DNA of 64,000 nt. Origin: a bacterium (GTDB taxonomy: Bacteria; UBA8248). The notes under the pieces are model-generated. The model had not been told where the DNA came from. It did no database searches and was given only the letters and a program-made list of their open reading frames with translations. The position numbers and the translations under genes were made by a program. Where the stretch lies: NCBI GenBank assembly GCA_965207065.1, contig OZ242260.1:2240001-2304000 (forward strand), in the 5' to 3' direction. Below, one piece after another: positions 44,521 to 53,961 of this stretch. Every line of letters starts with the position of its first letter. The first letter of the stretch is position 1.

Positions 44521-45139
44521 GGCGCCCGAGACCCTCGACGAGGTCCGTCCCCTCGGGATGCGCATCGTCGTGCGCGGAACCCGCGAGGGCAGGCTCTGGA
44601 ACGAGTTCGTCGCCCGCTACCACTACCTCGGCTACAAGACCCTCGTCGGCGCCCAGATGCGCTACGCCGTACATGACCGGGGCGGCAGGCCCCTCGCCAT
44701 GCTCGGCTTCTCCACCGCCGCGTGGAAACTCGCCCCGCGCGATGCCTTCATCGGCTGGACGCCGCAGTTGCGCGAGAAGAACCTTCCCCTCGTGGTCGAC
44801 AACCCGAGGTTCCTCATCCTGCCCTGGGTCAAAATCCCCAACCTCGGCTCGCATCTCCTCGCCATCATCCGCCGGCGACTGCCCGGCGACTGGACCGAAC
44901 GCTACAATACCACCCCCGTCCTCATCGAGACCTTCGTCGAGACGCCACGCTACACCGGCGCCGTCTACAGGGCATCGGGATGGATTCACGTCGGAACCAC
45001 ACAGGGACGCGGACGCTACGACAGATACAAACGCTTCGACAAGCCCAGAAAGGACGTCTGGCTCCGCCCGCTCCGCAATAACTGGAAGCAGGTCCTCAAC
45101 CGCTGAAACAACTCCCATCACCCTGTCGCCGAACGTTTA
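44520..45139 (+). mobile_element. Right part of an IS66-like/DUF4338 element (3' part of DUF4338 and TIR; terminal C at 49400)
   Basis: Inverted near-copy of about 49410..50030; ORF 44558..45106; TIR ccatcaccctgtcgccgaacgttta. Confidence 0.88.
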
Positions 45140-45752
45140 TTGCGCCAGGCTAAGCCCTGGAGAGGAGGACGCCATGACCTGAAACCTCTCGTAGCGACCC
45201 AGCGGGTTCGACTCCCGCCCGGCAAAGGCGAAGCCGGCCAGCCGGAAGCGAGTCTTGCATGGCGTGCGGCAACGCCCGTCGTGAAGCGTAGACAGCAGGT
45301 GATGAAGCGGCGGGGTAAGCCTCGAAATCGGTCAATCGACGACGCCTTCATTGTTAATCGTGTGGGGGCAGCACCGGGAGCGCCGCCAATGGCGAGGCGC
45401 AACGGGTCGTCCGGGGTCGTGGGCCGGCGCAAAGTCACGGGACGGGTCGCCAGGGAACCTGGGAGATCCTGCTCTTGCCCGTGGGAAAGAACGCTGGAAA
45501 GGGGACGGCCAGCGTGAACAATCCAGACCCCGGCCCGTCGCCGGACCTGCACGGCGGCGGGAGCGCCCCAGGGCGGACACGAACCCGGCAGGCGCCCGCG
45601 GAACCGGCTGGCGAAAACAATAAGCCGAAGGACATGCGAGGGCAGGAAGTCGTAGCGCCCTGATAGTACCGCTGAAGGCGGGGAACCGTGGCCATCGGGA
45701 CCCGCTGGAGGGAAGCGGGGCGTCATCTGTACAGAACCACTGATGGGAAACG

Positions 45753-48700
45753 ATGGAGGAAACTCTGAGTTCCACCAACACGTACACGAAACAGCAGTGG
45801 ATAGCCGAACAGGCGAGGGAGCATCCGGAGCGGGTGTTCACGTCCCTGCACCACCTCATCGACGGCGAGTGGATGCGCGAAGCGTATCGCCGCACGCGCA
45901 AGGATGGGGCGAGGGGTATCGACGGCGTGAGCGCCGCCGACTACGAGAAGGACCTGGAGGTGAATCTTGACGACCTCCTGAGCCGGATGAAGTCGGGTCG
46001 ATACTTTGCGCCGCCGGTGCGTCGGCACTACATCCCGAAGGCGGACGGCACGAAACGACCGCTCGGCATTCCGACGTTCGAAGACAAGGTGGCGCAGCGG
46101 GCAATCCTGATGCTGCTGGAGCCGATTTACGAGACGGACTTCCTGACGTGCTCGTACGGCTTCCGGCCCGGACGGTCGGCTCACGATGCCCTGGGCGCAC
46201 TTCGCACGGGCATCATCGAGCAGCGCCAACGGTGGGTGATTGACGCCGATATCTCGAAGAACTTCGACTCGATATCGCACACCCACCTGCGGTCAATCCT
46301 CGACCTGCGGATTAAGGACGGCGTCGTAAGGCGCATGATTGACAAATGGCTGAAAGCGGGGGTGCTCGAAGAGGGAGCCGTGCACAGGCCGGTCACCGGC
46401 ACTCCCCAAGGCGGGGTAATGACACCCCGAACGCAAAAGGCAACTTCCAGTTTGAGCGCCAGATTGTGGCGTGGCGGGATCGTTCGTTACTTGATTATCG
46501 TCGCAAGAGGTAATATCATTATGACAAATGACGCGTTCAACGAAGTCCCAGAAAGCCGAGCGGATCAACGCAGCCTACACGCTGCTCGCGCAGGGCGTCA
46601 CGGCGAACGAGGCTGTAGCGCTGCTATCGCAGCGTTTCGGCGTATCGAAGCGGCAGTCCTACCGCTACGTTCAGCAGGCGGTAGCCATGGACCGGCCGGC
46701 AGAGCCGGTCGAATCCCGGATTCCCATCACCATCAAGATTCCGGGCGTGTTGGCGCAAGCCCTGCGTACGCACGCCAGAAGCAGCGGCCAGGCCATCGGG
46801 GACATCGTTGCACGGGCCCTGAGACGCTTTCTCCCGGATGTGGATTGAAATGGCTGCGCGTCGCCCGGGTTCGCGGCCCGGCGTTGAACTTGATTATCGT
46901 TTCGATCGCCTGTTCGCAGCCAGGCTCCAGAATGCCTACGAGATACTGGTTCCTGATCAGGCCCACAAAATCCCTGCCCGAAGACATGACACAGGAGACG
47001 AGGATGAAAGTCGCAGCCCTTTATGCGCGAGTCTCGGGCGAGCAGCAGAGGGAGAGCAACACGATCGCCAGCCAGACCGAGGCGCTGGTCGAATACGCCA
47101 GGAACCACGGCTACAGCGTCGCGCCGGAGATGCTCGTCGAGGATGACGGCTACAGCGGCGCTGTTCTCGAGCGTCCGGGGCTGGAGCGGATCAGGGACCT
47201 CGCCGCGGAAGGGCGCTTCGATACATTGGTGGTTCATGCCCCGGACCGTTTGAGCCGCCGCTACGCCCACCAGATGCTGATCATCGAGGAGATGGCCCGC
47301 CAGGGCGTTGAGACCGTGTTCGTGAACGCGCCGTCGATGGAAACCCCGGAAGACAACCTCCTCGTCCAGTTCCAGGGCATGATCGCGGAATACGAGCGCG
47401 CACAGATCCTGGAGCGTTCGCGTCGCGGCAAGCGTCATCGGGCGCAGCGTGGTGAAGTTGCGGTTCTCGGAGGCGCGCCTTATGGCTACCGCTACCACAA
47501 GAAAACCTTCGAGAGCGATGCCTATTATGAAGTGCTCGAACCTCAGGCGTCGGTGGTTCGCGAAGTCTATCACTACTATACTCATGACCACATGAGCATT
47601 GGCGAGATCACCCGCAAGCTCAACGAGCGGGCGGTGCCCACGTCCTCCGGTCGCGGACGCTGGGAGCGTTCGGCCGTGTGGGCGATGCTGCGCAACCCGG
47701 CGTACAAGGGCAAGGCGTGTTTCGGCAAGACCCGCCAGATGCCGCGAAAAATCGTGACCCGTCCCTTGCGATTGCGCGGCGGTGTGGCCGGCGCCACCAC
47801 CGGCGGTCACGAGAAACCGCGTGAGGAATGGATCGAGATTCCGGTGCCGGCGATCGTCAGCGAGGAAACCTTCGCCCTGGCCGAAGAGCGGCTGGAGATG
47901 AACTAGGCCCGCGGGCCGCGCCGAACAAAGACGCCCAGCGTGGTGCAGGGGCTGGTCTCATGCGCCAAATGCGGCTATTCCCTGTATCGCACATCGACCC
48001 GGACGAGCGCCCGCACGATTTACTATTATCGCTGCCTGGGGCCCGATGCATGGCGGCATCTCAACGGGCCGGTATGCGACAATCGGCCGGTGCGCCAGGA
48101 TCTGCTTGACGAAGTTGTCTGGAGCGAAGTCGTCCGCCTTCTCGAGGATCCGAATCTGATCGGCGCCGAGATCGAGCGTCGGCTGGAGGCGGCCCGCGAC
48201 TCCGACCCCAGTCGGCAGCGCGAGACCGACTTGCGGCGCCGGTTGATCAGGGGACGAAAGAGTATCGACCGCCTGGTCAATGCCTATCAGGAGGAGCTGA
48301 TCACCATCGACGAACTGCGCGAGAGAACGCCCGAACTACGTCGTCAGGAACAGGCCCTTCATCGTGAGCTGCAGTCCGTTGTCGACCAGGTCAAGGATCG
48401 GGAAACCTACCTCCGGCTCGCCGACACGCTGACCGGGTTCCTGGCGCGGCTTCGCCCTCCGCCCGGACTCTGGGTGCCATCGAGCAACAGCTCCTTGTCC
48501 GTCTCCTCGTCAAGGAGGTATTGGTCAGTGAGGAGAAGATCACCATTCGCCATTCCATCCCGATCCCGGGGACGTCCCGTGGCAGTCCGGCCCCGTCCGA
48601 ACCCGACGACGGAGGCGAAAAGCAAAGTTACCTTTTGCGTTCGGGGTGTCATCTCGCCAATGCTTTCCAACATCTTCCTGCACCACGTGCTGGATAAGTG

Positions 48701-52632: not shown

Positions 52633-52739
52633 GCCGACATGATTACCACATGCCGAAAAGTGTTACCAGAGCTTCAGGGAAATCTCTTCGATTATCCGGG
52701 ATGAGAAAAGCGGGCCATCACCCTGTCGCCGAACGGTTA

Positions 52740-53548
52740 TTGCGCCAGGCTAAGCCCTGGAGAGGAGGATGCCATGACCTGAAACCTCTCGTAGCGACCC
52801 AGAGGGTTCGACTCCCGCCCGGCAAAGGCGAAGCCGGCCAGCCGGAAGCGAGTCTTGCATGGCGTGCGGCAACGCCCGTCGTGAAGCGTAGACAGCAGGT
52901 GATGAAGCGGCGGGGTAAGCCTCGAAATCGGTCAATCGACGACGCCTTCATTGTTAATCGTGTGGGGGCAGCACCGGGAGCGCCGCCAATGGCGAGGCGC
53001 AACGGGTCGTCCGGGGTCGTGGGCCGGCGCAAAGTCACGGGACGGGTCGCCAGGGAACCTGGGAGATCCTGCTCTTGCCCGTGGGCAAGAACGCTGGAAA
53101 GGGGACGGCCAGCGTGAACAATCCAGACCCCGGCCCGTCGCCGGACCTGCACGGCGGCGGGAGCGCCCCAGGGCGGACACGAACCCGGCAGGCGCCCGCG
53201 GAACCGGCTGGCCAAAACAATAAGCCGAAGGACATGCGAGGGTAGGAAGTCGTAGCGCCCTGATAGTACCGCTGAAGGCGGGGAACCGTGGCCATCGGGA
53301 CCCGCTGGAGGGAAGCGGGGCGTCATCTGTACAGAACCACTGATGGGAAACGATGGAGGAAACTCTGAGTTCCACCAACACGTACACGAAACAGCAGTGG
53401 ATAGCCGAACAGGCGAGGAATGCCTCGACCTGCGGACCAAGGGTGACAACCCCTTGAGCGAACCTGTCAGGTGAGGAACCGAGTGCGTCAATCGCGCACG
53501 CTCGGGTCTGCGGGGGGAGGGGCGCAGCAATGCCCCCTCCTACCCGGC
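52740..53548 (+). ncRNA. ORF-less group II intron, copy C (809 nt)
   Basis: Same length and deletion junction as copy A, at least 2 SNPs apart. Confidence 0.92.
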
Positions 53549-53961
53549 CAATGCTCCGGCGACAACGACCCCCCGGGATACGCAGGCATTGTAACGAATC
53601 CGCTTGCGGGTTGATTACGGGTCGTGGAGGGTGGATTTCGAAGATTCAGTTAAAGATAATACTATCAATATATTAGATAGATATGTGTCTAATCTAACCG
53701 GATGGATGCACCTAATTTATCGAATAACCCCGTGAATTTATCTATATTTACGGAAATGATTATTTGCATTTCGCATGTTCCCCGCTTCGACTGATCGACG
53801 GCCCGGCTCCTGCGATCCGCGCCCCTTCCACCCCCTGAAAAAAGAAAGCCGACGGGCTGTCTCCCGAGCATACCCCATCCCCCCGGAAATTCCGTAACGG
53901 CGAATGCGGGCACATGCGCGCGCCGAACGCGACCTGTTCGGGACGAGGAGGAAGAGAACCA

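Follow-up and report, generated by a model that had tools for sequence, protein, structure and literature searches.

Group II introns that reside in insertion sequences (ISs) have been described before. Martinez-Rodriguez et al. (2014, PMC4615759) described RmInt2, a class D intron of Sinorhizobium meliloti GR4, inside the inverted repeats of ISRm17; this intron shows retrohoming with a lagging-strand bias and occurs in head-to-tail tandems (PMC4615759). A 2018 review, which also repeats the RmInt2 case, reports that insertion of RmInt1 blocks the spread of ISRm2011-2 (PMC5894124), i.e. the idea of introns curbing IS spread is already published. Here we describe a group II intron lineage that is found between the last two nucleotides of the terminal inverted repeats (TIRs) of IS66-type elements in a bacterium of the UBA8248 lineage (assembly GCA_965207065.1, contig OZ242260.1). 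The starting point was a stretch of 64,000 nucleotides (positions 2,240,001 to 2,304,000 of the contig, forward strand), which we call the window; coordinates refer to the window unless they are labelled as genome coordinates. A first-pass annotation of this DNA had presented the targeting of a non-coding transposon end as new, and this priority belongs to the insertion of RmInt2 into both inverted repeats of ISRm17, published in 2014 (PMC4615759). In the literature collection that we searched, only the RmInt2 work was relevant and no earlier report of the intron/IS66-tip pairing was found.

Intron copies and their host elements

The window contains three intron copies, denoted A, B and C (Table 1). 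Each splits an IS66-type TIR, with the penultimate A before the intron and the terminal C behind it, and the boundaries fit the empty sites. The 5' flank of each copy is ...CGAACGNTTA or ...GAATA, and the 3' neighbour is C in all three cases (20449, 49400 and 53549). Reading of the sequence bears out all positions that the first-pass annotation had given for the copies and their flanks, and the presence of introns in IS66-type TIR tips is confirmed.

Copy C sits at the head end of an element that we call IS-2. The arms of IS-2 (49410-49434 and 52715-52739) are complementary at 25 of 25 positions, and at 26 of 26 once G49409 and C53549 are added. As annotated, excision of intron C leaves a perfect 26-bp TIR pair with the 8-bp AATGCTCC, an exact duplication, on both sides. 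Since the TIR is completed in this way and the duplication lies outside the intron plus C, the IS must have been present first, with the intron arriving later between the last two nucleotides of the element. Copy A occupies the right end of a miniature inverted-repeat transposable element (MITE), and the flanks around the MITE, AATGGTTA and ATGGTTAG, have 7 nt in common, offset by one. Copy B follows a sequence that had been taken for a whole IS and is actually only 620 bp of tail (44520-45139), which repeats 49410-50029 in inverted orientation at 96%.

Elements of the IS66 family (ISfinder) have TIRs that begin with GTAA and make 8-bp target duplications, and their canonical accessory genes are tnpA and tnpB. 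The GTAACC... ends and the AATGCTCC duplication of IS-2, together with 8-bp duplications in nine relatives, agree with the family, and the PF03050 and NF033517 profiles recognise an IS66-type DDE transposase in IS-2. The second gene of IS-2 is a DruA-like gene (PF14236) only, and neither tnpA nor tnpB was found in it. As the DruA-like gene stands in place of tnpA/tnpB, we regard the element as a member of a non-canonical IS66 subgroup. The same two-gene layout, IS66 transposase plus DruA-like gene, is seen in the target ISs of many relatives (L012-L058).

The Rfam model RF02005 (group-II-D1D4-6) matches the three copies at 19709-19926, 45209-45426 and 52809-53026 with 123.6-124.1 bits (gathering score 49). 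The match spans the full model (1-225) in each of them, i.e. they have the domain I-IV ribozyme structure. In domains V and VI (D5 and D6) compensatory changes among relatives keep the stems paired, and reading of the sequence by eye places a bulged A of D6 at -7 from the 3' end. The encoded protein is 446 aa long and contains a reverse transcriptase (RT) domain with an FADD motif (RVT_1, E=2.2e-36). It scores 364.4 bits with TIGR04416, the group II RT/maturase equivalog (cut-off 300), and its closest solved structure is LtrA (E=8e-48). No endonuclease region was detected in it, Pfam giving RVT_1 only. The class D C-terminal motif LX3AX3PXLF[V/A]HW has no regular-expression match in the protein, and its absence excludes class D membership of the lineage.

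The genome consists of a single 4.48-Mb contig, which was searched by blastn with the intron. Besides 7 complete intron copies, the search returned two fragments and two D6-like palindromes of 33 nt. IS66-type tips, belonging to a full IS, to partial ISs and to 122-bp MITEs, hold five of the 7 complete copies. An exact 8-bp duplication across the intron is seen in two of the seven, namely C and the full-length copy at genome position 1476282 (FL), the chance per match being 4^-8. FL (genome 1476282-1478310) is uninterrupted and 97-98% identical to copy B (blastn); the 2.2-kb element that splits the open reading frame (ORF) of copy B at 46419-48652 is absent from it (blastn).

Several copies are ORF-less. 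The 809-nt form, found in A, C and the copy at genome 1524934, has a common ORF deletion, is 99.75-100% identical between copies and occurs in three different contexts; it is also present at full length in the genomes G013 and G026. A 790-nt form is found in the copies at genome 28155 and 2308542. The ORF-less derivatives retain the first ~20 ORF codons in domain IV. Since each form (809 and ~790 nt) is found at more than one locus, these derivatives would be mobilised in trans, by protein supplied to them.

Target recognition and relatives in other genomes

The first-pass annotation had proposed TAATCG (19855-19860) and TCGGTC (19828-19833) as the exon-binding sites EBS1 and EBS2, respectively. 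Both proposals are correct, judging from their placement in the Id3 loops of the Rfam consensus and from covariation with the 5' exon: in the Rfam alignment the long Id3 stem holds EBS2 in its 5' internal loop, and the first hairpin within the stem has EBS1 in its loop. Covariation was analysed in an alignment of positions -20 to +330 with 68 distinct sequences. EBS1 is paired with its intron-binding site (IBS1) in 94.9% of the cells, and each of the 6 pairs shows changes on both sides. EBS2/IBS2 is paired in 72.8% of the cells; the outermost pair is mostly unpaired, which leaves an effective helix of 4-5 bp. Covariation scores 0.741, as against 0.203 for shuffled sequences (none of 500 reaches the observed value) and at most 0.144 when the partners are slid by 1-3 columns. 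Examples of matched loops are UAAGCG/CGCUUA, UAAGCA/UGCUUA and UAACUG/CAGUUA, and introns with other targets are likewise matched (GGUCAA/UUGACC, UGCAAG/CUUGCA, CGACAA/UUGUCG). EBS3 is nucleotide 280 of the intron, just past the closure of the Id3 stem, and it is the only alignment column that tracks the +1 base: it is G in 46 of 46 sequences with C at +1, and U in 15 of 16 with A at +1.

In these pairings, EBS2 (UCGGUC) binds positions -13/-12 to -8 of the target, EBS1 (UAAUCG) positions -6 to -1, and EBS3 (G) position +1. All 44 insertions with a 3' flank have C at +1, and none of the positions from +2 to +12 exceeds 0.10 bit. As nothing is conserved past +1, the target lies wholly inside the transposon and flanking DNA is not needed. 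Position +1 being the terminal C of the transposon, the target travels with the IS, and there are two sites per IS, one on each strand.

Relatives were collected by a search with the intron protein, one genome per species, which gave 479 confirmed relatives. The best 80 of the 479, corresponding to 79 loci, were kept; these show 64-97% protein identity and come from metagenome-assembled genomes (MAGs) whose titles name many phyla. The intron boundaries were mapped with nhmmer, and the 5' boundary was found in 71 of the 79 loci (not in L011, L017, L032, L034, L039, L048, L061 and L071). With L050, L053, L057 and L060-L087 set apart as having other targets, and with L010 dropped for its flank of only one nucleotide and L027 as duplicating L026, there remained a close clade of 40 distinct insertions in which the 5' exon ends in ...TA and +1 is C.

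In nine of these 40 insertions, removal of the intron and restoration of C gives an inverted partner and an exact 8-bp target-site duplication (TSD) (Table 1); four of the nine are 111-134-bp MITEs. A 3' boundary is available for 37 of the 40 insertions, i.e. the nine stand against 37. That genomic copies should sit mostly in TIR tips had been set as a test beforehand, and they do so in 5 of 7 cases in this genome and in 23 of 40 insertions of the relatives when TSD and gene context are the criteria; counting TIR similarity as well raises this to 29 of 40. Among 30 other related genomes searched the intron was found in 9, and within the same genus in 7 of 18. In the nine further loci with a 5' boundary the 5' exon is TIR-like in every case, as judged by eye (L091 is the same place as L009). 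The first-pass annotation had also expected two usable sites per IS plus MITE ends, which agrees with the occupied MITE ends and with L022-L024, where both IS ends are occupied; L023 has two introns head-to-tail. In the genome of L012, three of three complete copies of its IS carry exactly one intron each.

Two side observations on the relatives should be mentioned. Intron proteins 82-97% identical are found in MAGs labelled Nitrospinota, Alpha-/Gammaproteobacteria, Binatia, Thermodesulfobacteriota and Gemmatimonadetes (L009-L059), which points to recent horizontal spread or to binning cross-talk. A sister clade (L060-L082, 69-75% protein identity, clearest in L073, L075 and L079) lies antisense within IS66 transposase ORFs, near alignment residue 571. 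From these placements the whole intron lineage appears to be tied to IS66 elements.

Table 1. Features of the window, other intron copies of the genome, and classes of related insertions
Feature	Position or loci	Strand	Details
Palindrome	19467..19509	.	43 nt, perfect; 3' half and loop match the intron D6 3' end (blastn 33 nt, 97%); followed by C, AATGGTTA, MITE
IS66-type MITE	19518..19639	+	122 bp; right TIR without terminal C (C at 20449); inverted ends 20/26; 4 copies in genome
Intron copy A	19640..20448	+	ORF-less, 809 nt; RF02005 124.1 bits; 99.75% identity to copy C; in 122-bp MITE
Copy A recognition sites	EBS2 19828-19833, EBS1 19855-19860, EBS3 19919		EBS2 TCGGTC, EBS1 TAATCG
Terminal C of MITE TIR	20449	+	IBS3, first 3'-exon nucleotide after copy A
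IS66-DruA partial tail	44520..45139	+	DruA-like C-terminal fragment 44558-45106 (PF14236 E=5.3e-38); TIR 45115-45139 without last C
Intron copy B	45140..49399	+	full-length type; RF02005 123.6 bits; in partial IS tail, DruA-like gene fragment 81 nt upstream
Copy B parts	EBS2 45328-45333, EBS1 45355-45360, EBS3 45419, D5-D6 ~49325-49399
Copy B RT ORF	45753..49325	+	start ATG 45753
2.2-kb element within copy B RT ORF	46419..48652	+	28-bp TIRs, 106-aa ORF, large serine recombinase
Terminal C of partial IS tail	49400	+	IBS3 after copy B
IS-2 left TSD AATGCTCC	49401..49408
IS-2	49409..52739	-	sole complete IS66-DruA element in genome
IS-2 empty tail TIR	49409-49434
IS-2 DruA-like gene	49488-50315		275 aa; PF14236 E=1.7e-37
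IS-2 IS66 transposase	50320-52632		770 aa; PF03050 E=2.3e-53; NF033517 270 bits, cut-off 180
IS-2 head TIR	52715-52739 plus C53549
Intron copy C	52740..53548	+	ORF-less, 809 nt; 100% identical to genome 1524934-1525742; in full IS, exact TSD
Copy C parts	EBS2 52928-52933, EBS1 52955-52960, EBS3 53019, D5-D6 53474-53548
Terminal C of IS-2 head TIR	53549	+	IBS3 after copy C; TIR 26/26 with intron removed
IS-2 right TSD AATGCTCC	53550..53557
Intron copy FL	genome 1476282		in 122-bp MITE; exact TSD TAACCATG; ends only 17/26
Intron copy 2308542	genome 2308542		in partial IS tail; DruA-like gene fragment 82 nt upstream
Intron copy 28155	genome 28155		no TIR partner, TSD or IS66 gene; not a recognisable tip
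Intron copy 1524934	genome 1524934		no TIR partner, TSD or IS66 gene; 100% identical to C; perfect EBS1 match, almost no EBS2 pairing
Relatives: inverted partner and exact 8-bp TSD (9/40)	L012, L013, L014, L019, L025, L028, L041, L045, L052
Relatives: IS66 transposase or DruA-like gene (14/40)	L018, L022, L023, L024, L036, L037, L038, L040, L043, L044, L047, L049, L055, L058		gene at most 450 nt upstream
Relatives: TIR-like by similarity only (6/40)	L009, L015, L033, L051, L054, L056		weaker criterion
Relatives: no IS sign (11/40)	L016, L020, L021, L026, L029, L030, L031, L035, L042, L046, L059

Origin of the insertions and fate of the transposon end

We consider it highly probable that the copies belong to a mobile group II lineage whose domain I is of IIB type and whose 446-aa RT/maturase lacks an endonuclease domain, and that this lineage retrohomes into the terminal 14 nt of the TIRs, both in IS66-family elements with a DruA-like gene and in their 111-134-bp MITEs. 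Without an endonuclease, the intron would use the site on the lagging-strand template and take its primer from nascent DNA, a route established by experiment for RmInt1 and RmInt2. In this genome dnaA, at 1.253 Mb, coincides with the minimum of the cumulative GC skew and the maximum is at 3.54 Mb. The sense strand is on the lagging-strand template in 6 of the 7 copies; the tail end of IS-2, which is empty, has the opposite orientation. The bias is in line with that demonstrated for endonuclease-less introns (PMC4615759); given 7 copies, some of them clustered, it is suggestive only.

There are a number of points that weigh against this reading, starting with the ribozyme itself. The RF00029 model (D5-D6) gives 35.7 bits on 53474-53548, below the gathering score of 40 (E=4.3e-5). 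The published group II boundary consensus is 5'-GUGYG ... AY-3' (PMC7923331), and the boundaries here are UUGCG...GGC. The intron copies and L009-L087 begin with UUGCG or UAGCG and have G in the penultimate position. In D5, where the consensus is GAGCCG, 38 of 40 distinct 3' ends read GAACCG, the others being GAGCCG in L074 and GTACCG in L009. Among the 71 relatives with a 5' boundary, L074 alone combines G1, a penultimate A and GAGCCG (GUGCG...GAC). We treat the UUGCG...GGC boundaries as a lineage variant, not as a ground for exclusion. A single published parallel is UHB.I2, for which 5'-UUGCG..GU-3' boundaries were reported (PMC7923331) and which, like the present lineage, has the non-consensus U at intron position 1; it differs in that it belongs to the CL1-class protein lineage and is located in an integron after an attC site (PMC7923331).

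The other points of this kind concern specificity and activity. The copies at genome 28155 and 1524934 (2 of 7), and likewise 11 of the 40 insertions in the relatives, have no TIR, TSD or IS66 gene, i.e. the specificity is relaxed; to judge from its sequence, the copy at 1524934 looks like a recent ectopic event. Six of the 29 TIR calls rest on similarity alone, a measure that is inflated, the last 13 nt being constrained by the intron. Good tips in the favourable orientation are empty, for example the right ends at genome 1962208 and 3203102 of the MITEs at 1962087 and 3202981. The 6/7 orientation is not significant alone, and A, B and C form a cluster. The genome retains no RT gene that is both intact and ATG-initiated, B being split by the 2.2-kb element and the 1476282 copy having CTG, so current activity is unproven. 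Finally, no joint across the intron, empty or spliced, was seen for 52400-53900 in one probable DNA run and three RNA-library runs, a result that carries no weight either way (contigs only; two runs have identical figures and are maybe one data set). The RNA-library contigs cover intron-like sequence over 52400-53900 at 90-97%, which is no proof of transcription.

What the insertion does to the transposon is less certain, and we lean only slightly towards the view that it impairs the IS end concerned. Impairment is to be expected since a T would stand where the cleaved terminal C should be, and since the true tip is moved 0.8-4.3 kb away from the transposase-binding part of the TIR. It is, however, quite conceivable that the TIR tip is simply a safe, portable, multi-copy landing site, that the IS end keeps working, and that the intron is a hitch-hiker and not a brake. 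Such an end could work if the transposase places its cut by distance and tolerates T in place of C, or if the ends come from one intact copy. The location of the whole target inside the IS speaks for a hitch-hiker, and the high protein identity across MAGs that carry the labels of different phyla fits riding on a mobile host. A further sign, which weighs against impairment, is an intron-less tip ...GCTTA+T, with T for C, at L012:394-413, just beyond the IS's left duplication, which could mean that processing of capped ends still takes place. On the other hand, this lone T-tipped end is a single, anecdotal case, and a loose search for T-ending tips gave mostly noise, with L012 as the one suggestive case. 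DDE transposases generally need the exact terminal nucleotides beside their binding site, and in this genome IS-2 is the only full IS66-DruA copy left, the 5 others being fragments.

It is far less probable that the intron is cargo which spreads by IS/MITE transposition and not by retrohoming. Several loci (L023-L025, L037/L038) do show the same IS with the same intron and different outer flanks, as expected of cargo. However, near-identical introns are found in more than one TIR family and also at sites outside ISs (copy A is in a MITE, copy C in an IS and 1524934 in neither), one and the same IS carries the intron at its head end in L012 and at its tail end in L013, many tips are empty, and EBS1 covaries with the TIR subtype. 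Moreover, the terminal C is located beyond the intron, and a TIR-bound transposase would have to cut 0.8-2 kb away. The reverse order of events, i.e. insertion of IS66-type elements beside pre-existing introns or their D6 hairpin, could account for intron 3' ends and D6-like palindromes that are repeatedly followed by C, 7-10 nt and a GTAA... TIR (here B/IS-2, FL, the fragment at genome 1961958, 19467-19509 and A; in relatives L040, L089, L100-L105/L108 and L109, with different TIR families), but this adjacency concerns the 3' side and is a matter of its own, the TIR is broken up by the intron on the 5' side, and a TSD outside the intron plus C is only possible if the intron entered an IS already in place, which makes this order extremely improbable.

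The 3'-side junctions are of interest in their own right. In the window, intron 3' ends and palindromes followed by C, 7-10 nt and a new GTAA... TIR are found at 49400-49409, 20449-20464 and 19509-19518, and others in L001 (the FL flank) and L006. The duplications at such junctions are AATGCTCC, TAACCATG, ATGGTTA(G), GGGCATTG and TTGCGCCG, and a MITE at genome 939144 lies inside a D6-like loop. We speculate from these arrangements that IS66-type elements may prefer landing beside a D6 hairpin or an existing tip. Perfect palindromes (19467-19509; genome 1944344; L100-L111) match the last 33 nt of the intron, i.e. the D6 3' strand plus loop, at 88-97%, without the rest of the intron. Further copies of the palindrome occur in genomes of the same genus. 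G002 has 6 such palindromes and G013 has 3, and in G002 they end a larger conserved repeat. An IS110-family element (20458-21650, transposase 20430-21566) starts directly after a truncated IS66-type tip, GTAACCG, 8 nt past intron A. The rest of the truncated TIR was sought beyond this element and was not found there. The junction recurs in a genome of the same genus (L109), and a related left end lies directly after the intron copy at genome 28155; the IS110-family junctions may represent a third layer of tip-targeting.

A few observations pertain to the 2.2-kb element in copy B. Its large serine recombinase contains Resolvase, Recombinase and Zn_ribbon_recom domains and has an in-frame TAG at 47904. 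An AT dinucleotide is found at both junctions, and the uninterrupted target in FL, GGGGTC-AT-CTCG, resembles the element's own end. A second, partial copy is located at genome 1493310-1495137 (L008). The sole uninterrupted RT ORF of the genome, that of FL, has CTG opposite the ATG 45753 of copy B (L001:5615).

One can combine all this into a wider picture, which as a whole we regard as doubtful. An endonuclease-less lineage with a non-canonical core (U1, penultimate G, AAC for the D5 AGC triad) would be specialised on IS66 elements across phyla. One clade would cap the tip by using the last nucleotide of the IS as IBS3, which would uncouple the cleaved nucleotide from the transposase-binding repeat and kill the end, and the sister clade would split the transposase ORF in antisense. 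IS66 elements and MITEs would in turn land preferentially ~8 bp beyond D6 hairpins or palindromic relics, giving rise to self-nesting arrays and to a real intron-transposon antagonism.

Comparison with described introns

If retrohoming into the tips is accepted, homing into transposon end-repeats is not a curiosity of RmInt2 in one strain, but would be used by an unrelated lineage in many phyla. It would do so in an extreme form: the 3' exon is a single nucleotide, so each new IS or MITE copy makes two targets that are independent of the flanks. The system offers a natural setting for asking if introns restrain transposons, its covarying EBS/IBS pairs are material for the retargeting rules of an endonuclease-less intron, and the ribozyme family is an apparently successful one that departs from the GUGYG/AGC core. 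For annotation, IS66 ends that seemingly lack the last base or have 0.8-2-kb 'extensions' are worth checking for an intron.

It is useful to compare the general features of this lineage to those of the introns described so far. It is close to RmInt2 (PMC4615759): both are endonuclease-less group II introns with EBS1/2/3 recognition, both have two sites per IS, on opposite strands with respect to replication, both show a lagging-strand bias and relaxed specificity, and both form head-to-tail tandem copies, here the pair in L023. The differences are as follows. Firstly, RmInt2 is of class D, whereas the lineage described here is without the class D C-terminal motif. Secondly, ISRm17 belongs to the ISDol1 group of the ISNCY family (PMC10194956) and the host here is IS66. 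Thirdly, the EBS3/IBS3 pair is U-A in RmInt2 and G-C here, with the last nucleotide of the transposon. Fourthly, RmInt2 was reported from one strain (PMC4615759) and the present lineage occurs in MAGs of many phyla. As regards the site, it is the last base step of the transposon here.

RmInt1 in ISRm2011-2 and Sr.md.I1, in an ORF annotated as an IS66 transposase, are likewise endonuclease-less introns residing in ISs. Their targets are coding sequence (PMC4615759, PMC5894124), in contrast to the non-coding tip used by the close clade. Our sister clade resembles Sr.md.I1 in lying inside IS66 transposase ORFs, but it is antisense to the transposase gene. Class C introns, which choose terminators and attC sites (PMC7923331), also target short, non-coding, repeated motifs. 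They recognise a stem-loop plus short IBS1/3, whereas here a linear 14-nt sequence is read by EBS2-EBS1-EBS3. In comparison with these systems, what is new here is the IS66 family as host, the position at the tip, the use of MITEs, the spread across phyla, the ORF-less derivatives and the non-canonical core.

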